Of a stretch of 64,000 bases of DNA, positions 19,795-48,801 are shown piece after piece (position 1 is the stretch's first letter; each line of letters opens with the position of its first letter). The stretch lies in contig NC_135830.1 in the NCBI RefSeq assembly GCF_964213995.1, positions 4,960,001 through 5,024,000 of the forward strand, in the 5' to 3' direction. The notes beneath the pieces were generated by a model. It was given only the letters and a program-made list of their open reading frames with translations, ran no database searches and was not told the origin of the DNA. Both the position numbers and the translations under genes were made by a program. Source of the DNA: Mustelus asterias. Its lineage: Eukaryota.

Positions 19795-20013
19795 CATTTT
19801 ATATGTCTTCTAAACAAGTATTTTCAATGAATATCCTGTTCATTCTGGGATTAACTAGTTCAGAAAATATTTTAAATGTCTTCTAAACAAATATTTTCAA
19901 TGAATATCCTGCTCATTCTGTGGTTAACTAGTTCAGAAAATATTTTAAATGTCTTCTAAACAAATATTTTCAATGAATATCCTGTTCATTCTGTGATTAA
20001 CTAGTTCAGAAAA
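19795..20013. repeat. 73-bp tandem repeat, about 3 copies
   Basis: ATGTCTTCTAAACAA starts at 19803, 19876 and 19949. Confidence 0.9.
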
Positions 20014-20611
20014 CAGCAGAGTGAATAGATGACATTTAATTTGTGTAACTTTCAATTAAATGTCAATCTAATGATTAATGTCTGTTTGTCAACAACTTGA
20101 TGAAATGCGAGAGAGAGATGTTAATGGTCACAATCCGTTAGTCTAATGAGATCGGTGTAATAGCAAAAAATGAAAAGAAATAAAATTATAAGAAAATCAT
20201 AAAATTGCCTTGAACAGCGGGGATTCTTGGAATATTCAGAAAGTTCTGCTCCTCATGTAAACGGCTCGTCACTTAAACCTGATTAGCACCGTGTTCTGTT
20301 GTACAGTTTAATCTGATTTCGTTTGTTTAACAGTCGCTCTCACAGATGCCAATGAGTGCAGAAATGATTAGTTTCTAACTGATTCAGTGGTAGATAAAAC
20401 CATTCATTCTTGTGATATTGTGTAATGTGCTGCAAAGTCCTGATATCCTGTGTTCCCAATAACAGTGAATGGGCGACAACCGGTGGCCAATAAAATGAGC
20501 TGCAATGATTTGTGTGCTGGAAGATACCTCTACTCGTAGCCCTGTCCGTTCTGATTCATTAACTTCTCTGTCAAAAGTCGATGCCGATTTTATGTTTCTC
20601 CATTAGCTCAC

Positions 20612-20829
20612 TGCTTAATTATCAGACAAGCGGGTTTCTTTTGCAGCTAATCTTCAGAGGACTGCCTGAGGCTTACGGGTATTTTGAGGATAGTCAGGAG
20701 ACATTGTGTAATGTTCTAATTATCAGTGCTTAATTATCAGACAAGCGGGTTTCTTTTGCAGCTAATCTTCAGAGGACTGCCTGAGGCTTACGGGTATTTT
20801 GAGGATAGTCAGGAGACATTGTGTAATGT
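20612..20829. repeat. 103-bp direct duplication upstream of VH
   Basis: 20612-20714 matches 20727-20829. The 12-nt spacer TCTAATTATCAG copies the start of the unit. Confidence 0.9.
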
Positions 20830-21406: not shown

Positions 21407-21452
21407 ATGAGGTCGGCGATTTCTCTCAGTTTGTTGCTGGCTTTCTTATCCA
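21407..21452 (+). CDS. IGHV: IgM VH leader exon (MRSAISLSLLLAFLS)
   Basis: Hydrophobic signal peptide ending in a phase-1 GTGAGT donor at 21453. An in-frame upstream ATG is at 21395. It joins in frame to the acceptor TTACAG at 21576. Confidence 0.9.
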
Positions 21453-21576: not shown

Positions 21577-21878
21577 GAGTCCAGTCGCAGGTTGTGTTGA
21601 CTCAGCCAGAGGCAGCGACCGGGCGTCCCGGAGGCTCCCTGAGATTGACCTGTAAAACCAGTGGCTTCAATCTTGACAGCGACTGGATGAACTGGATCCG
21701 AAAGGTTCCCGGACAGGGGTTGGACTGGCTCCTTGACGACACAAGTTCATCGAGCAACAATTACTCCCCAGGGATTCAGTATCGATTTACAGCGTCCAAA
21801 GACCTTTCAAGTAATACCTTCGCTTTGGACATGACTGGTCTGACGAACGAAGACACCGCCATCTATTACTGTACATAT
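21577..21878 (+). CDS. IGHV: Ig heavy-chain variable segment (shark IgM-type VH), open frame
   Basis: (R)[25 protein letters not shown]...[12 protein letters not shown]...RFTASKD...EDTAIYYCT has the canonical Cys, Trp and YYC V-set motifs. Confidence 0.95.
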
Positions 21879-21917
21879 CCCAGCGATAGGGACCAGGGCT
21901 GCCCCCGGACAAGAACA
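21879..21917 (+). promoter_or_regulatory. VH 23-RSS with defective heptamer
   Basis: CCCAGCG + 23-nt spacer + ACAAGAACA. The invariant CAC is changed to CCC. Confidence 0.85.
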
Positions 21918-22269
21918 GTTCGAGAAGGAATTTAACAACTTCCAACACAACCTGAAATTCAGTACCTCTTGTACATGTAATATTAACTGCAATGATCTGA
22001 ACCAGACAACTAGCTGATTCTTACCAAACTAACACAGCGAAAATGTAACGGTAAAACGTAACAGACAAACATAGAAAACGGGGTTGGACTGTGGCTGTGG
22101 TTATATTTATTATTGACACTTTCAACACTTCCAGACCTGCAAATAATGCTTATTTTAATATGTCTGACTTTGTGATCGATAAACTGCTGCCTAACTGATA
22201 AATGAGATCAGAAATAACGTTCTATTTGAAGTGAATAGTGAGCGGCAGTACTGAACAGAGAGTGAGTGC

Positions 22270-22348
22270 AGTTTTTGTGCGGGTGTGTGTCACTGTGATA
22301 TGTTGGGTCGAACTGGCAGGCACAGCTGTTACCGTCAATACAAAAACC
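22270..22348 (+). other. IGHD: DH segment (22298-22320) flanked by two 12-RSS; probable germline D1-D2 fusion
   Basis: AGTTTTTGT-12nt-CACTGTG, then ATATGTTGGGTCGAACTGGCAGG, then CACAGCT-12nt-ACAAAAACC. Confidence 0.9.
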
Positions 22349-22634
22349 CCTTTCAGCACTTACTGATTGAGGCTGGATCAGTGTCACTTCTATAATCCAA
22401 CTATAATTTCAGTATAGTACTCTCGATGATCAGCATTGCCCGAATGGCAAGAATTAAAATGCAAACTCGATGATAATTGTTCGATTATCAGTTGTTGTTT
22501 TCAATAACATGTTCATGTGTTACTCTGTGAAATATAAATCATTAGGGTCATTTATGAAGAGCGAAAGGCTTCATTGATTTACTTGCCTTGTGCTTTGTGA
22601 ATATTTAAAATAATGGTCTATTGTGTTTAGAGCA

Positions 22635-22673
22635 TGTTAATGTATGGTGCAGCCCAGAGAATGTAACACAGTG
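22635..22673 (-). promoter_or_regulatory. JH 23-RSS
   Basis: TGTTAATGT (degenerate nonamer) + 23 nt + CACAGTG directly before the J coding sequence. Confidence 0.8.
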
Positions 22674-22720
22674 ACACTTCCCATCCTAGGGACAAGGGAC
22701 CACGGTGACGGTGACTGCAG
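22674..22720 (+). pseudogene. IGHJ: JH segment with nonsense codon at the conserved Trp
   Basis: Reads HFPS*GQGTTVTVTA. TAG at 22687-22689 replaces the TGG of WGxG. The GTAAG donor at 21-style position 22721 is intact. Confidence 0.9.
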
Positions 22721-25701
22721 GTAAGAACCGTGCACTTATTGAGCAACTGCTTCACTTGAGCCTTTGTTTTATTTTATTTCCTATTTTAGTAATTCATTAA
22801 CTAATTGAAATGTGGGTTTGGTGGATTTTTTATTGAGATATTTTGCAATGGTCCATGTGATTTTGCTGAAAGGGTTGAAAAGTTCTGCTGCTTCTTGACA
22901 ATAGGTGCTGCTAAGTTATTTAATCTCTGGTTGCTGTGATTTGGTGTTTATCTGTTGAGGGCATTGTGTGGCTGGGTTACTGTAAATACCGAACTTCTGT
23001 TAAACAGTTATGCGTTTCTGCAATGTTTAATCTCGGTGACATCAAATAGCTGCGAGTTGTACCATCTACTGCACAAGTGTTTGAAATGTAACCCAATATT
23101 AACAAAATATGTTAAAATTGCTGTATTAATTTAGTGATCATGTTCCGTCTGCTCACAAATCTCGTGTTGTTGTGGCATATTTCTGTCCATTTAATTATTA
23201 ATTGGGTTTGTCATTAACAGATTGGCTGGATTTTATATTGAGATTCTCTGTCAATTTTACATTTGGTTCTGTTGAAAGTATTTGTGGAATTGAGCTGCTT
23301 CTGCATGAAATGGGGTTCAGTCCCTCAGTGATGTGTTTTTTTGTGGTGAGGTGGTTGTGTGTCTGGGTGACTTTGAATAAGTAAAATGTGTGAAATGATT
23401 TGGTGTTTCTGTATTGCTTCTGCATTGTTTACACTCGGTGACACTGAGCTGTTACACTCTTTGTGATTGAATACAAACATTCAACACGTTTGAAACTGCT
23501 TGACGCATGATTGCAGGCAGAACTCAGGCAAGATTTATTGCAGTTTTTTAAAAAAATCTCAAATGATAATTCCAGATTAAACTAAGGCACGGTTTACGCC
23601 GTTCGTTCAGAACATAGTTTGTCACTGAATTCACAATTTGTGATACCTGCAATGTTTAATTTCGGTGGCATCTGATGGCTGCAGCTTTTCCCATCGAAAT
23701 GTTTAAATATGTTTGAAGTCTCTTTGAAATGTGATCCAATATGAATAAAATGTGATAAAGTTTCAATATTAATTTGTTGGACATATTCCACCTCTTCACA
23801 ATATTATTGTTATCATTCCAGATTGCTGTTTAGTTTAATAATTTGGTGACGAGATCTTCTGCTGGATTCCGTATTGAGATCTTCGTGCGATGTTACATTT
23901 ATTTCTGTTGAATGGATAATTGAGCTGCTTCTCCATAAAACGGGGTTCATTCCCTCGGTGATGTGTTTTAGTATTTTTCTGCTGAGGAGATTGTGTATCT
24001 GGGTGACTTAAAATGTTTATAATTTGTGGAATGGTTTGGAGTTTCGGTATTGCTTCTGCATTGTTTAAACTGGTTGACACTGCGTGGTGCCACGTCTTCT
24101 GGTTCAATGCATTTGAAAATACTTTAGCACGATTGTCGGGGAAAAAACAGGCAGGTTTCGGAAAAAAATGAAATAAAGATACACTTTTATAAATGTAAAT
24201 GATGATTGCAGATTAAAATACAGCATGGCTGAAAAAAAATCATTCAGAATATAATTCATTGCTACAATCAATACTTACTTAACAAGTTTGAAGTTTGTAG
24301 AGTGAAATTAATATAATTGAAACAATTGCTTCGCGGTAATGTACTCCTTATTCACCAAAAATATTTGATGTTGATATCATTAATCCCCTTTCACAACTAT
24401 GCTGTGCATTGCACACAATTAACATAAACGAGAAAGGTTCTAGGCTGAAAACATTTTGTGATTATTTCTGAAACTATTTCAATGAGTACAGGCTGATTCC
24501 ACATCAACGTTTAGTTCAACAAGATATTTTGAAACAATCGTTTTGCGCTAATTAAGTTTACCGTCACTTAAATAGGAGTTTTACATTGCAGTTTGGTAAT
24601 GTATGTATCCTGTTATTGCATTTTTTTTCGGTTGCAGGCGCAGCCAAATTATTGCTTTAAAGTAATATGTCGATAGATAATTAATCACTACTCTAATCTT
24701 AAACAGTTTTCTGAGAGCTGAAGTTCGCTAGCATGAAGTAATTGTTCATTTGGTTTTTGAATTGTGGTAAGGTGTCGACAGGTGCTCGCCAGACAACGGC
24801 AAGTAAATGCTTGAAATTCACACTGATTAGTTTAATTACGGAAGTTTTATATTAGTTCTGCTCCTAGCAATAACATTCTGTCTTCCAATACTGCTGCAGA
24901 CAGAATAAAATGATAGGAAGAACAAATGTCAGCACAGACGAATTTACTCAATCTGAAACTTCTGTTTAATTATTATTAAATATTAAACTGAAGAACAAAA
25001 TCTCGACTTATTTTTCATCATGTCTCAGTCTTGCAGAGGATTTGAATAAATTGTCCTCATTGTGTTTTGTACTGTTTTATGTGTAACTTTTTCAATTAAA
25101 CAATATGATCAACAATTTAATTACTTTTCAATTAAACAATATGATCAACAATTTAATTACTTTTTCAATTAAACAATATGATCAACAATTTAATTACAGC
25201 AATGATCAGCTTCATTGTTCCCAGGAGCAGGCTGAGGGTAAGAGAGTGGGTTTGCTGACTGTAATTAATTATTTATTTTTTCAGTTAATTTTGGGTTTAA
25301 AATCGGAGGTTTTTTTCAAAACCGGAAGTCAGGCCAGGAGTGGCCAGGGGAAGTTTTTGGAGGGTTTAAAAAGGGCTTACCTTGGAGGTTCAGCTTCATT
25401 GTTCCCAGGAGCAGGCTGAGGGTAAGAGAGTGGGTTTGCTGACTGTAATTAATTATTTATTTTTTCAGTTAATTTTGGGTTTAAAATCGGAGGTTTTTTT
25501 CAAAACCGGAAGTCAGGCCAGGAGTGGCCAGGGGAAGTTTTTGGAGGGTTTAAAAGTGCACCAAAGTATACAGCGGGCAGCAGAGTGAGTGGGAAGTTGA
25601 GTGAGCTGTCAGGGCTTTGGCTCACAGGGCTTGGACGAGCAGGGGTGAGTTTTTGTTTCCTTACACTCTTATTAACTTTTCACTGTCTTACTTGACATAA
25701 A

Positions 25702-26640
25702 GTGTCCAGTATGAGTGGGAAACCAATGTGTTGTTCCCAGTGTAGGATGTGGGAGGTCCTGGAGGCATCTGGCCTCCCGGACATCCACATCTGTGAGGGG
25801 TGTGTCGAGCTGCGGTTCCTGAGAGACCGTGTTAGGGAGCTGGAACTACAACTCGAGGATCTTAGGCTGATGAGGGAGAATGAGGAGGTGATAGACAAGA
25901 GCTATCATCAGGTGGTCACACCAGGGCCACGGGAAGAGGCCAAGTGGGTGACGGCCAGGAAGGGTAAGGCTAGGGTGGTTGAGAGCTCCCCGGTGGATTT
26001 GCCCCTGCAGAACAAGTACTCCTGCTTGAGTACTGCTGGGGGGGACAGCCCGCCTGGGGGAAGCAGCAGTGGCCGTGTCTCCGCAGTGGAGTCCAGCCCT
26101 GTAACTCAGAGGGCTAAGGAAAAGAGGAGGAAGGCGGTATTAATCGGGGACGCGATGGTGAAGGGGACAGACAGGCGTTTCTGCGGAGGTAGGCGGGATT
26201 CTCGCATGGTGGTCTGCCTCCCTGGGGCCGGGATCCAGGATGTCGCTAGTCGCGTCCCGGAAATCCTGAGGTGGGAGGGAGAGGAGCCTGAGGTAGCGGT
26301 ACATATTGGTACCGCTGATGTGGGTAGGAAGGGAGAAGGGGTCATGAAAAGGGAGTACAGGGAATTAGGGAGACAGCTGAGAAAGAGGAAAGCAAAGGTA
26401 GTAATCTCAGGATTACTGCCTGTGCCACGGGAAGGTGAGGGCAGGAATGGAGTGAGGTGGAGGATGAATGTGTGGCTGAGGGACTGGTGCAGGGGGCAGG
26501 GATTCAGGTTCCTGGACCATTGGGACCTCTTTAGGGGCAGGGGTGATCTGTATACAAAAAACGGGTGGAACTTGAATCACACGGGGACCAATATCCTGGC
26601 CGGTAGGTTGGCTACGGCTACTGGGGAGAATTTAAACTAG
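25702..26640 (+). CDS. CR1 ORF1 (zinc finger/coiled coil plus SGNH esterase-like domain)
   Basis: CSQC...CEGC, coiled coil LRDRVRELELQLEDL, and IGDxMV / CLPGA / HIGT blocks. Confidence 0.85.
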   Translation: MSSMSGKPMCCSQCRMWEVLEASGLPDIHICEGCVELRFLRDRVRELELQLEDLRLMRENEEVIDKSYHQVVTPGPREEAKWVTARKGKARVVESSPVDLPLQNKYSCLSTAGGDSPPGGSSSGRVSAVESSPVTQRAKEKRRKAVLIGDAMVKGTDRRFCGGRRDSRMVVCLPGAGIQDVASRVPEILRWEGEEPEVAVHIGTADVGRKGEGVMKREYRELGRQLRKRKAKVVISGLLPVPREGEGRNGVRWRMNVWLRDWCRGQGFRFLDHWDLFRGRGDLYTKNGWNLNHTGTNILAGRLATATGENLN

Positions 26641-26734
26641 ATAGGTTGGGGGGAGGGGAGCTAGAAGAGTTGACTAGGATCAAGGAACTAATTGATGGGG
26701 GGGAGGATGCAGGGGTAAGGGGAATTACAAATTA

Positions 26735-29599
26735 ATGGTAGAGGAGAGGGTGCAAGTGAATGAAGGCGGTAATTTAGATAAGGGAGTAGAGGGAGACGGT
26801 GTTCGCGACTCATCAAAGCGGGTCCAGATAAAAGCTGGAATAAGGACACTTTGCCTGAATGCACGAAGCATTCGGAACAAGGTGAATGAGTTGATGGTGC
26901 AAATCAGCACAAGTGGGTACGATCTAGTGGCCATTACAGAAACGTGGCTGAAAGGTGACCAGGACTGGGAGATGAATATCCAGGGGTATCAGGCGTTTAG
27001 GAAGAATAGACAGGAAGGAAAAGGTGGTGGGGTCGCGCTATTAATAAGAGATAATATCAGGGTAGTACTGAGGGATGACATAGGCTCTGAGGAACAAAAC
27101 GTGGAATCATTATGGGTAGAGATGAGGAATAGTAGAGGGAGAAAGACACTAGTAGGTGTGGTATATAGGCCCCCAAATAATAATGTTGAGGTAGGGAGGG
27201 CTATAAACAAGCAGATAAGGGATGCGTGTAAAAACGGAACGGCAATAATCATGGGGGACTTCAACATGCACATTGACTGGCAGACTCAAGTCGGTAAGGG
27301 TGGAATGGAGGAAGAGTTCTTAGAATGCTGTCGGGATAGTTTCCTTGAACAGCATGTTACGGAACCGACGAGGGAACGAGCTATTTTGGATCTGGTATTG
27401 TGTAACGAGGTAGGTAGAATTAAGGATCTTATTGTGAAGGACCCTCTTGGGTCGAGTGACCACAATATGGTCGAATTTCTGATTCAGATGGAAGAGGAGA
27501 AAGTTTGGTCTCAAACCAGTGTCCTCTGTTTGAACAGAGGGAAATATGATAGGATGAGGGATGAATTGGCTAAGGTAGACTGGGAGAGCAAGCTGGCAGG
27601 TAGGATAGCTGAGGAACAGTGGAGGATTTTTAAGGAGATCCTTTTCAGTTCTCAGCAAAAATATATTCCAGCAAAAAACAAGGATTGTAAGAAAAGGGAG
27701 AACCAGCCGTGGATAATGAAGGAAATAAAGGAAAGTATTAAAATAAAAACAGCTGCGTACAGAGTGGCCAAAAATAGTGGAGAAACAAGTGATTGGGAAA
27801 AATTTAAGAAACAACAAAGAGAGACTAAGAAAGCGATAAAGAAAGGAAGGATAGACTATGAAGCTAGGCTAGCAATTAATATAAAAAATGATAGTAAAAG
27901 TTTTTATAAATATATAAAAAGGAATAGAGTGGCTAGAGTGAATGTTGGACCCTTGGAGGACGAGAGGGGGGAGTTAATAGTGGGAAATGAGGATATGGCT
28001 GAGTCTTTAAATACGTTTTTTGTGTCAGTCTTCACGGTGGAGGACACAAATAGTTTGCCAAATATTAACGATAGAGGGTTGGCAGCAGGAGAAATACTTA
28101 ATACAATTAATGTTACCAGAGAGGCAGTGCTGGGTAGACTAATGGGACTGAAGGTGGACAAGTCCCCGGGTCCGGATGGAATGCATCCCAGGGTATTGAA
28201 AGAAATGTCAGAGGTAATAGTGGATGCGTTAGTGATTATTTATCAAAACTTGTTGCATTCTGGGGTAGTGCCGGTTGATTGGAAAACGGCTAATGTTACG
28301 CCGCTGTTTAAAAAACGAAGGAGACAAAAGGCGGGTAACTATAGGCCGGTCAGCTTAACGTCTGTAGTAGGGAAAATGCTGGAATCCATTATTAAAGAGG
28401 AGATAGCAGGGCATCTGGATAGAAATGGTTCGATCAATCAGACGCAGCATGGATTCATGAGGGGAAAGTCGTGCTTGACGAACATGTTGGATTTTTATGA
28501 AGATGTGACGAGGGCGGTTGATGGAGGAGAACCGGTGGATGCGGTGTTTTTGGATTTCCAAAAGGCGTTTGATAAGGTGCCCCATAAAAGGCTGCTGAAG
28601 AAGATTAGGGCACACGGAGTTGGGGGTAGTGTGTTAAAGTGGATTGGGGACTGGCTATCCGACAGGAAGCAAAGAGTCGGAATAAATGGGTGTTTTTCCG
28701 GTTGGAGGAAGGTAACTAGTGGCGTGCCACAGGGATCGGTACTCGGGCCGCAACTGTTTACCATTTATATAGATGATCTGGAGGAGGGGACGGAGTGTAG
28801 GGTAACGAAGTTTGCAGACGACACAAAGATAAGTGGAAAAGTGAATCGTGTGGAGGACGGAGAAGATCTGCAGAGAGATTTGGACAGGCTGAGTGAGTGG
28901 GCGAGGATATGGCAAATGGAGTATAACGTTGAGAAATGCGAGGTTATACACTTTGGAGGAAATAATAACAAATGGGATTACTATCTCAATGGAAACAAAT
29001 TAAAACATGCTACCGTGCAAAGGGACCTGGGGGTCCTTGTGCATGAGACGCAAAAGCCCAGTCTGCAGGTACAACAGGTGATCAAGAAGGCAAATGGGAT
29101 GTTGGCCTATATTGCGAGGGGGATATAATATAAAAGCAGGGATGTCTTGATGCACCTGTACAGGGCATTGGTGAGGCCGCAGCTGGAATACTGTGTGCAG
29201 TATTGGTCCCCTTATATGAGGAAGGATATATTGGCATTGGAGGGAGTGCAGAGAAGGTTCACCAGGTTGATACCGGAGATGAGGGGTTTGGATTATGAGG
29301 AGAGGCTGAGGAGATTGGGGTTGTACTCGTTGGAGTTTAGAAGGATGAGGGGGGATCTTATGGAGACTTATAAGATAATGCGGGGGCTGGATAGGGTGGA
29401 GGCGGAGAGATTCTTTCCACTTAGTAAGGAAGTTAAAACTAGAGGACACAGCCTCAAAATAAAGGGGGGTCGGTTTAAGACAGAGTTGAGGAGGAACTTC
29501 TTCTCCCAGAGGGTGGTGAATCTCTGGAATTCTCTGCCCACTGAGGTGGTGGAGGCTACCTCGCTGAATATGTTTAAAGCCGGATGGATGGATTCCTGA
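26735..29599 (+). pseudogene. CR1 ORF2 (APE endonuclease plus reverse transcriptase), TAA at 29126-29128
   Basis: [29 protein letters not shown] and KFADDTK. The frame continues past the stop (GI*YKS) into ORF 29147-29599. Confidence 0.92.
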
Positions 29600-31089
29600 T
29601 CGGTAAGGGAATTAAGGGTTATGGGGATCAGGCGGGTAAGTGGTACTGATCCACGTCAGATCAGCCATGATCTTATTGAATGGCGGGGCAGGCTCGAGGG
29701 GCTAGATGGCCTACTCCTGCTCCTATTTCTTATGTTCTTATGAACGATTAAATCAAGGAAGCAATTTTATTGATCACAAACAGCCATGCTTTACAGTATA
29801 CTTGGGCCTTGAAGTATGCATTTTTAATCAATTTGTGGGTTAATAGAAGGCTTTTCGTAAAAGACAAAAATCAAATAATAAAATGTGAATAGATGAAGGT
29901 AAAATTATTAAAGATGTCTGAACGTTTCCATCCAGTAATTTGATGTTAATTGTTTAACACTGTTTAAGATTTCGTTGAAACCCAATTACTTAACAACGTT
30001 CTCTGCAGAAGGGAGTTTTGAATTATTGAGAACTGTTTTTTATTATATAAAACAAATCAGCTGACAGGAGAAAGAACTGGCAATTAATAATAAGTTATAT
30101 ATAATATTCGTGCTAATTAATTCAACAAAAATGACCTCCAACAATCAAATTTAACGGTTTTAGAGAATATTTAATTGTATGGAAAATGAATTCAGAAAAC
30201 AATACATTACTCAGCTGTAATCTGCTCTATAAGGTGTTTTGCTTCGATTATTTTGTTGATTACAGTTAATTAAGAAATTAGATCGAATCAGGTAATGATT
30301 TTCAATTTAAATATTTCCTGGTTTGTTTAATTCTTACTGTAACACCATATCTGTTAGGGAAATTAAACTACACTGAATCTGTTAAATTCGATGTGCTCAT
30401 TTTCAGCGAAATTGCATTTTTCTGCCCAGTTTTCGAGATTTAAAAGAGACAGGGGAAAATTATTAAAAGCTGACCCACCGGCCATGGGAATATTGGATTT
30501 TACAGTGTAATTCGATTTTACAGTCGCTTGCGAGGCCAAAATTTGATATCTTTCGCAAGGGGCAAATTTTGACTTGAAGTATCCTTGAATGACTGCAGTC
30601 CATGTGGTGCCAATGTATCTGCTGTGCTGTTGCAGAGGAAGTCCCAGGACTTTGACCCAGCGACAGTGAAGCAACAGCGACATTGTTTCAAATATAGACT
30701 TGCACAGGATATAGATCGGGTGGTAGTCCACCTCCCCCCGCCCCACCCCCCCAACCAACCTCTCTCTCTCTCTCTCCCTCACACACATACGCATACACAG
30801 ACATGCACACACCCGAACACACACACACACCCTCTCACACATGCACACCCTCTCTTACACAGAGGCTCACTGTCCCACACACGTACACGCTCAGGCTCTC
30901 ATACATAATCTCTCTTTCTTATCCACACTCACACACATTCATACATGTCTCTCACACATTCGCCCTCACATACACCCAACACACAATCTCTCTCTATACA
31001 CACACAGTCATACGCACGCACACTATCTCACACACGTTTTTTCACATTTTTTCTCTCATTTTTTCTCTCTCATTTTATCACAAACACGC

Positions 31090-36448: not shown

Positions 36449-36748
36449 CGACACCGTCTCCGCTCGTTCTCCACAACCTGGTCTCCTCCTGTCAGCAACA
36501 CAACACCGACGGCACCGTCACCTACGGCTGCTTGGCGATGGACTACTTCCCAGAAATCACCAGGCTGACCTGGAAGAAAGATGGACAGCCGATCACCACT
36601 GGAGTTAAGACTTACCCATCAATGAGAAACACAAAGGGAACCTACACCCTAAGCAGCCAATTAACCATCACCGAGTCAGAGGGAGCATGCAGCAACATCA
36701 ACTGTGAGGTTCGACACAGCGGTTCAGATAAGAGCATTGAAATGCAAT
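36449..36748 (+). CDS. IGHM: IgM Cmu1 exon
   Basis: CAG acceptor, then [15 protein letters not shown]...[10 protein letters not shown]...WKKDG...YTLSSQLTI...NCEVRH, then GTAAG donor. Phase 1/1, 300 nt, open. Confidence 0.93.
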
Positions 36749-36955: not shown

Positions 36956-37270
36956 GTCCTCGAGATGACATCGCACCAACCGTTATCCTCACCGTGAGTT
37001 CCAGTGAAGAAATCACAAGCAGCAAATTTACAACCGTTATCTGTTCAATTATCGGTTTCTTTCCAAAGTCAATGACGGTGAAGTGGCTGAAGAATGGACA
37101 ACCCATGGATTCAGGAATTGTCACCTCTCCCGCCTGGAATGCGAATGGGAACTTCTCGGCGAGCAGTGGGCTGACAGTCTCCGCTGGAGAATGGTTCAGC
37201 AAAGCAGTCTATACCTGCCAGGTCACTCATCAAGGCCTCCTCCAAAGTCGAAACATCACTGGATCTCTGG
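36956..37270 (+). CDS. IGHM: IgM Cmu2 exon
   Basis: [13 protein letters not shown]...[22 protein letters not shown]...[18 protein letters not shown] flanks, phase 1/1, open. Confidence 0.93.
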
Positions 37271-37948
37271 GTAAGAGGCACAGACCAATAAAGAAATTGG
37301 TTACTCTGCGCTCTGCTTTTAATCAAAACCAAAAATGATTGAAGTTAGGACATTGCAGGCAACAAATTCTTAGTTATTTCTATGTAGTTTGTGTTTCATT
37401 CTAATGTAAGAGCTCCATTTGGATTGCTCACTATTCAGGATTTTATCAGAATTGCAAAAAATGATTCCCCCAACTTTGATACTTTGATGTCATATAGTGA
37501 GAGAGGTGGAATTGATACCAGCTTTATCCTTTGATTTCATTTATTAGTGTGACATGCATTAATATGCACAGAAATTCCTGAGGCAGCTGATAATATTTGG
37601 ACTGATGTCGTTGTCTGGTAACACCTTTAGGGTAATGTGTTGAAAAGTGCATTCACCCTATTTATAAACCAACGTTCAGGACTGCATTCCTGAGATCAGG
37701 AATGATATATTTGTATTGGGAAAGTTGCAATGTCGATTCATTAGAATGGGAGTGGAGCAGAAATATTTTAACAATGAGAATAGTTTTCCCAGACCAAGCT
37801 GGTTTTTCATTGACTATAGAAGATTAAGGGCGATGGTTGGAGTTTGATATCTCGAAGTTGATTTATTCCATTTAGAGTGTGAGGGCTGAATAATGTTGTC
37901 TTGATTCTGAAGATGGAACTTGTGTTGATTTTCATTTTTCCTTTGCAG

Positions 37949-38257
37949 ATTCTTACCAGAATGCTGATTCCACCTTGACAATACTGCCACCACCAATTGA
38001 ACAGGTCTTACTGGAGGCTACTGTAACCTTAACCTGCGTCATATCTCATGCTCCTTATGGACTCAACGTGTCCTGGAGCCAAGACAAGAAGGCTTTGAAA
38101 TCAGATATTGCTGAAAAGCCTGGAGAGGATCCTTACAGCGTCGTCAGCAACTTAAACATCTCAACACAAGCCTGGCTGAGTGGGACTGTGTTTGACTGCA
38201 TTGCGAACCATGAGGATCTGCCGACACCTTTAAGAAAATCCGTCCACAAGGAAGAAG
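37949..38257 (+). CDS. IGHM: IgM Cmu3 exon
   Basis: [19 protein letters not shown]...VSWSQ...[26 protein letters not shown] acceptor, GTGAG donor. Confidence 0.93.
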
Positions 38258-40458: not shown

Positions 40459-40850
40459 ATCCAAATCCGCGGGAACCGTCCGTTTCTGTCCTCATGCCCT
40501 TGGCAGAAGAAGTCTCCGCTCAAAAAATAGTCTCCCTCTCCTGCTTAGTGAGAGGTTTCTCCCCCCGAGAGATCTTCGTCAAGTGGACCTTCAAAGACAA
40601 GCCGGTGAATCCCGGGAACTACAGTAACACGAAGGTGATGGCGGAGAACGGCAATAGCTCCTTCTTCATGTACAGTCTGTTATCCATTGCAGCGTTGGAG
40701 TGGGCCAGCGGCGCTTCTTACTCCTGTGTGGTGGGACATGAAGCTATCCCCTTGAAGATCATCAACAGAACGGTTGATAAATCCAGTGGTAAACCCAGTT
40801 TTGTGAACATTTCTCTTGCACTGATGGACACCGTTAATTCCTGTCATTGA
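40459..40850 (+). CDS. IGHM: IgM Cmu4 exon plus secretory tailpiece
   Basis: CAGCAG (NAGNAG) acceptor, so the exon starts at 40456 or 40459. Reads PSVSVLMP...[17 protein letters not shown]...YSCVVGHEA...[24 protein letters not shown]. Internal GGTAAA donor at 40789, NIS glycosylation site, penultimate Cys. Confidence 0.95.
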
Positions 40851-48543: not shown

Positions 48544-48671
48544 ACTTCACAGACGACATCTGGATTGAAGCCAATGAGGATGATAACGGCAAAATCTGGA
48601 CAACCGCTTCCACATTCATCGTCCTGTTCTTCCTGAGCATGTCCTACAGCGCTGCAGTCACTCTGGTGAAG
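48544..48671 (+). CDS. IGHM: IgM transmembrane exon TM1
   Basis: DFTDDIWIEANEDDNGKIWTTASTFIVLFFLSMSYSAAVTLVK carries the CART motif. TAG acceptor, GTGAG donor. Confidence 0.93.
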
Positions 48672-48801
48672 GTGAGATGATTCAATGGACTCACACTTCA
48701 AACCGGCAGAAAAATCTCTCAATATTTCACTGATTAAAAACACTAACATTAATGTCCCAGCTCAAAAACATCGGCTTCATTATTGTGTCTCTCTTTTACA
48801 G

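Follow-up and report, generated by a model that had tools for sequence, protein, structure and literature searches.

A single D segment in a divergent IgM minicluster of Mustelus asterias, probably an inherited D1-D2 fusion

Partly germline-joined IgM clusters were reportedly described in the horn shark and the little skate by Kokubu in 1988, and the phenomenon is said to have been known since then. According to the accessible text of the studies concerned, germline joining of the RAG type is established in sharks (PMC2193156, PMC2193153), and germline-joined heavy-chain clusters are on record for horn shark and skate (PMC2193153, PMC2193156, PMC5192425, PMC4279169). As far as these texts go, the IgM forms of horn shark and little skate resemble the locus considered here in that part of the V(D)J assembly is inherited within a minicluster and that joined and unjoined clusters occur in one genome; they are, however, mostly V-first (VD, VDD, VD-J, VD-DJ and VDJ), whereas the present join is D-D only. 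The plain text of PMC2193153 prints "V DD-J" for germline clusters, which can stand for either VDD-J or V-DD-J; a D-D-only germline join of IgM may already be on record, and because of this ambiguity no priority is claimed for ours. No report of a germline V-DD-J IgM cluster was found in the literature searched, outside of which most subscription papers lie, and the string "V-DD-J" was encountered there for somatic forms. Three nurse shark systems come close in other respects, as described in the accessible parts of the respective papers. 1) Type III IgNAR (PMC4622739, a review) likewise has the D1-D2 step alone fixed in the germline, with V and J apart and one join fewer to be made, but it is IgNAR, whereas the present gene is IgM with two Ds. 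2) Somatic V-DD-J intermediates of IgM have the same configuration and indicate that shark RAG is able to begin with the D1-D2 join, but they are unique to each cell and absent from red cells, whereas the present join is fixed and shared (PMC2435157). 3) The NS4 light chains share the clean excision of signals and the trimming of ends, and their germline joins stem from several independent events and spread through the population (PMC2193156); these are complete V-J joins with close unjoined sisters, whereas ours is a D-D join on a long branch with no sister. All three IgH isotypes are placed near TCR alpha/delta in the accessible text of PMC12227049.

The window, a stretch of 64,000 nucleotides of Mustelus asterias (NC_135830.1, positions 4,960,001 to 5,024,000, forward strand), carries an IgM heavy-chain minicluster with a leader, one VH, a D region, one JH, C-mu 1-4, a secretory tail and a transmembrane exon in one cassette (Table 1). 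Recomputation agreed with the sequence-only reading in placing a single D of 23 nt between V and J, flanked on both sides by a 12-RSS and open in all three frames (ICWVELA, YVGSNWQ and MLGRTGR); its estimates of about 420 and 350 bp for the V-D and D-J gaps became 419 bp (V coding end to D) and 353 bp upon measurement. Neither a second D nor a 22/23-RSS was found between V and J of the window, which thus departs from the canonical V(23)-(12)D1(22)-(12)D2(12)-(23)J layout found in 42 of the 61 loci that we parsed in this genome. A pattern for the double-12-RSS layout matched five times in the 3.68-Gb genome, always within IgM clusters, and gave no match in the reversed control. Among the minor features of the window, the insertion in the J-C intron begins with a tandem duplication of 184 bp and contains LINE-like frames of ORF1 and reverse transcriptase, two tandem repeats with units of 115 bp (1.9 copies, 20608-20829) and 73 bp (3 copies, 19796-20013) lie upstream of the promoter, and a lone RSS-like match with a 12-bp spacer at 63480-63507, far from Ig segments, is probably due to chance. 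The middle of C-mu 2 and the start of C-mu 3 (within 36956-38257) are without two cysteines that most paralogs possess, which may mean altered inter-chain bonding.

Table 1. Coordinates of the IgM minicluster in the window
Feature	Positions	Strand	Remarks
IgM leader exon	21407..21452	+	open, GT donor; promoter upstream conserved with unjoined clusters
VH exon	21577..21878	+	open, both cysteines and tryptophan; 3' end ACATAT, short of the paralogous end by 3 nt; shark IgH V as V-set relatives
V 23-RSS	21879..21917	+	heptamer CCCAGCG (CAC lost), nonamer intact
V-D1 intervening DNA	21918..22269	+	73-76% to V-D1 spacer of unjoined clusters
12-RSS, D1 5' signal	22270..22297	-	heptamer exact, nonamer 1 mismatch
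Fused D, 23 nt (probable)	22298..22320	+	D1-like left ~11 nt, 2-3 bases between, D2 core AACTGG in 22311-22320
12-RSS, D2 3' signal	22321..22348	+	heptamer CACAGCT, nonamer exact
D2-J intervening DNA	22349..22634	+	76-81% to unjoined clusters; a 31-bp piece found at 22567 in the other copy type is absent
J 23-RSS	22635..22673	-	degenerate; nonamer differs by 2 changes from the form most common in paralogs; CAC retained in heptamer
JH	22674..22720	+	altered 5' end; TAG at conserved tryptophan, in window copy only
Insertion in J-C intron, 4.6 kb	25124..29741	+	LINE-like reading frames; marks the copy type of window and L002
C-mu 1 exon	36449..36748	+	open
C-mu 2 exon	36956..37270	+	open
C-mu 3 exon	37949..38257	+	open; best named relative Triakis scyllium IgM (76%)
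C-mu 4 exon and secretory tail	40459..40850	+	open; poly(A) signals 40878 and 40887
Transmembrane exon	48544..48680	+	open

We put the probability at roughly 0.85 that this single D is an inherited fusion of D1 and D2, present in all four assembled copies of a divergent IgM lineage and likely made by RAG. The comparison on which this reading is built started from a DNA search of the same genome, in which 40 of 193 candidates were scored and yielded 30 loci (4 of the window lineage, 23 unjoined, 2 showing a D2-J join, and 1 chimera). Further stretches, less six duplicate loci, brought the parsed set to 61 (42 unjoined, 9 V-DD-J, 6 VD-D-J, 3 V-D-DJ and 1 chimera), whose shares are not frequencies since some of the stretches were chosen for looking joined. 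The flanks of the window D, with the signals left out, were then compared with those of the 42 unjoined clusters: the left flank scored 96-124 against the 5' flank of D1 versus 12-19 against that of D2, and the right flank 37-101 against the 3' flank of D2 versus 14-22 against that of D1. The 364-380 bp that run in unjoined clusters from the D1 3' signal to the D2 5' signal left no remnant near the window cluster (best score 29). Hence, the outer flanks of two segments adjoin while their inner signals and the spacer are entirely gone, and this division of the flank scores, together with the lost spacer, identifies the window D as a D1-D2 chimera, as the sequence-only reading had proposed. Its own counter-scenarios fared poorly, as two Ds are the native state of the paralogs (42 of 61 loci) and the flanks are not both those of D2. 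No unjoined sister of the window lineage exceeded about 80.5-80.6% identity among the 42 unjoined loci, and exact patterns for the V end and the D of the lineage returned the same four copies only from this genome. A further constant region, the fifth (C971), is found on a contig that stops short of J.

Within the fused D, the two halves differ in how well their source can be read. AACTGG, the D2 core, is placed 10 nt ahead of the heptamer (shuffle rate 0.0005, p about 5e-4), a position that it takes in 18 of 48 paralogous D2s, with 25 more having it at -11 (43/48 together). Just before this core stands GGGT, with which 43 of 45 D1s end; the two motifs, chosen after inspecting the data, occur in this order at a shuffle rate of 0.00007, and the longer TGGGT, the end of 29/45 D1s, is located at the spot where a nearly full D1 would end (0.04). 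The left part is about 3 changes away from the closest D1 type. In a more neutral test, the best split into a D1 prefix and a D2 suffix was equalled in 41 of 600 shuffles and the D1 likeness of the left half in 190 of 600, neither of which is significant. The 12-nt junction pattern by itself was uninformative (70 genome matches versus 227 in the control). Thus, of the suggestion that the right part resembles D2 and the left part D1, the former stands with its core in register and the latter holds weakly. On these comparisons the D2 share of the fused D is firm, and the D1 share beyond the initial ATA is no more than likely. The breaks lie at the heptamer borders with small trimming, of about 2 nt at D2 and of 0-2 nt at D1 if the left part is indeed D1, and no P nucleotides or palindrome could be recognized at the junction. 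The bases between the two parts, read earlier as CGA with a possible role of TdT, are better given as CG or TCG; they may be N additions or later substitutions, the stem of the lineage being about 0.2 changes per site long, and the involvement of TdT is unsupported. As the left half resembles D1 so weakly, neither these 2-3 junctional bases nor a part for TdT can be taken as proven.

A variant of the same RAG event would have D1 trimmed to its first few bases and some 8-10 non-templated bases added by TdT ahead of D2. Such a course would suit a left half that is not significantly D1-like beyond ATA and the G+C-rich middle of the fused D, and another joined cluster of this genome (L104, two copies) does carry long unassigned stretches. 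Against it speak the TGGGT placed where a nearly full D1 ends (0.04), the mere 3 or so changes that separate the closest D1 type, and the little TdT activity noted for germline light-chain joins in the accessible text of PMC2193156; we consider it rather unlikely. An ordinary deletion without RAG, by crossover in the homology between D1 and D2 or by end-joining and perhaps followed by a short insertion, is very unlikely. The heptamer and the first three bases are common to D1 and D2, so that a crossover there would place the D1 flank on a D2 body, and the weakly D1-like left half would fit this course as well; the product would, however, be a D of 12-13 nt rather than 23 nt, and a further insertion would then be needed to supply about 10 nt with a D1-like end. 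Moreover, of the 4851 large deletions possible within D1-D2 only 16 have both ends no farther than 3 nt from the two heptamers, and the other joins of the genome also sit at signal borders with trimming. We infer a RAG-type coding joint as the simplest cause, because deletions rarely meet both borders and a crossover leaves too short a D.

The lineage has a stem of 0.18-0.21 changes per site with 100/100 support and is the most divergent of the sampled clusters, as judged by a midpoint root only. This divergence could be taken to mean that a V-D-J cluster with one native D preceded the two-D layout, and single-D clusters reportedly exist in some ratfish IgM. The two flanks, however, come from two different segments, the D2 core lies behind about 13 extra bases, and the D1 3' signal, the spacer and the D2 5' signal would all need to have been inserted later into the middle of a D, which makes a native single D highly improbable.

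The D1-D2 fusion recurs with an identical junction at four places in the genome, in two copy types that differ by about 1-1.7%. Copy L002 is situated on the same scaffold as the window, inverted and 5.7 Mb away, and is 99.9% alike over 25 kb; the other two copies (L003 and L004) show 98.3-99.3% identity with the window, whose 4.6-kb intron insertion is missing from them. The match between 11661-37158 of the window and the inverted copy at G000:C71:10.71-10.74 Mb represents either a recent duplication or a haplotype placed twice. In the public run X1, which may be related to the assembled sample and so is possibly not independent of the assembly, one contig spans 22271-22569 with 1 difference; its word depth of 102 compares with 92 and 105 in neighbouring lineage-specific contigs, depth being no measure of a share of cells. 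Run X5, under a different organism label, yielded a 390-nt contig in which V (3 differences) is joined straight to the unchanged 23-nt D, with 2 differences in the right flank of D; this is one contig of depth 4, with the tissue not on record. Among the matches listed, no piece bridging the junction was seen for runs X3 and X4, nor for X6, X7 and X8, which contain pieces of the lineage at 97-99% and in which the uncovered parts are evidence for neither state. The junction is thus common to diverged copies and other samples, rather than confined to a minority of lymphocyte-derived reads, the outcome that was to count against an inherited join. A somatic join from lymphocytes in the sequenced tissue may practically be dismissed, for although V-DD-J is described as a somatic intermediate in shark thymocytes and B cells, and somatic contigs are conceivable here because the assembly holds many partly joined clusters, some at least 99% identical to unjoined ones, as well as an IgM/TCR-like chimera, somatic junctions are unique to each clone in the accessible text of PMC2435157, whereas this one is identical in four copies of two types, in X1 and under a second organism label, with no unjoined counterpart above 80.6%. 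The four copies of two types, the outside runs and a nearest unjoined cluster at about 80.5% argue for an old inherited D1-D2 join and not a lymphocyte artefact. The window thus offers a clean case of RAG-type activity on inherited DNA, halted at the D-D step of IgM, with a junction that can be traced across copies and organism labels.

That V and J remain unjoined is correct for the window, with the qualification that the V signal is damaged, so that the gene, far from being poised, is probably stuck. Of 55 V signals, 4 have the heptamer CCCAGCG, namely those of all four copies of the lineage, and the remaining 51 begin with CAC, so the V of the window lineage is without the intact CAC heptamer of a rearranging IgM gene. 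The CAC is strictly conserved according to work on mammalian RAG, not on sharks (PMC12711392, accessible text), and since it has been lost the lineage probably can no longer join V to D efficiently. In the window copy J is closed by a TAG in place of its tryptophan codon (base 22688). The other three copies have TGG at this codon, as do orthologous contigs from runs X1, X3, X4, X5 and X7, which marks the stop as either private or an assembly error. The V heptamer loss, the shorter V end, the degenerate J signal and 5' end, and the J stop had escaped the sequence-only reading. The promoter, leader, V, C-mu 1-4 and transmembrane regions are open and conserved. Selection was gauged by dN/dS from three-way distances on C-mu 1-3, all three exons being available in 20 of 24 loci (13 distinct sequences); on the window lineage the ratio was 0.43-0.54 in 9 trios, with bootstrap upper limits of 0.73-0.99, a value that spans the whole stem and takes the time before and after the join together. 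The V exon gave 0.45-0.71 with intervals that include 1. The C-mu ratio of about 0.5 points to purifying selection on the constant exons and to a gene that functioned over much of the stem. Of the sites that vary among the copies, 5 of 6 in C and 3 of 5 in V change the amino acid, approximately the neutral share on small numbers. Protein searches for cDNA of the lineage V returned no close match, the best being 71% over the full query. Judged from these sequence features, the lineage has most likely lost the capacity for efficient V rearrangement and is in decay, and the window copy is probably dead.

We propose that in a germ cell or early embryo RAG would have joined the 22-spacer signal of D1 to the 5' 12-spacer signal of D2. 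The resulting V(23)-(12)DD(12)-(23)J cluster would still obey the 12/23 rule and need two joins instead of three, and it would have worked as a gene for much of its history until a later loss of the V heptamer CAC made V-to-D joining inefficient and led to decay, to which the window copy would have added its J stop. In the lineage the V end and the D start share ATAT (4 nt), where unjoined clusters share 2-3 nt; the V-to-D join of X5 uses this overlap in frame, and by a mere count of length a 2-nt overlap between the end of D and the start of J would yield a CDR3 of 11 residues in frame. These overlaps may be due to chance or to homology-guided joining toward a fixed CDR3. The X5 join is awkward to reconcile with a dead V signal: either the heptamer works or once worked there, or V was joined via ATAT without RAG. 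It is conceivable, if doubtful, that germline IgM assembly proceeded stepwise (D-D, later V-DD) in a lineage forming a specialised subclass, its overlaps steering it to a near-invariant, innate-like antibody with an 11-residue CDR3 and a constant region of its own without two cysteines.

Four further D1-D2 junctions were found in this genome (L036, L048/L049, L050 and L054), a pattern for VDD-J has nine matches in it, and many VD, DJ and VDD joins also occur. An unjoined (L057), a V-DD-J (L036) and a VDD-J (L100) locus have a common D end and show 3-4 differences over about 1150-1700 sites, and the L100 junction is also present in run X5; likewise, L048/L049 (V-DD-J) and L101 (VDD-J) have a common D end and differ at 1 of 1227 sites. 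L048 and L050 are of the same gene type with different D-D junctions. Such series suggest stepwise germline joining, D-D first and then V to DD, as between the window and X5, although the younger joined forms (L036, L100, L048/L049 and L101) could be either germline or somatic contigs. With near-identical unjoined, V-DD-J and VDD-J paralogs at hand, a single genome allows tests of the order in which germline joins are made, of their frequency and of their dependence on TdT.

The chimera L007/L047 (G000:C138:217697-217760, minus strand) comprises an IgM V and D1, 99.5% identical to unjoined clusters, joined to an extra D that is followed by a 23-spacer signal and two TCR-like J segments, which we take to be delta-type. 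As assembled, it represents a trans-rearrangement of IgM to TCR, of either germline or somatic origin. The L104 type, a VDD-J in two copies (G000:C105:81133-81194 and G000:C597:55889-55950) at 89% to the nearest unjoined cluster, has some 8 unassigned bases at its V-D junction and further ones at D-D and at the D2 end, and is a better candidate for germline TdT activity than the window. L051 (G000:C112:1190622-1190667) combines a V-D1 join with a trimmed D2 that is set off from its 5' heptamer by about 8 extra bases, a possible open-and-shut joint. In L021 (G000:C166) the D2 position holds a D1-like coding sequence of 11 nt, identical to the fused D of L036, which would be the product of either conversion or a hybrid joint.
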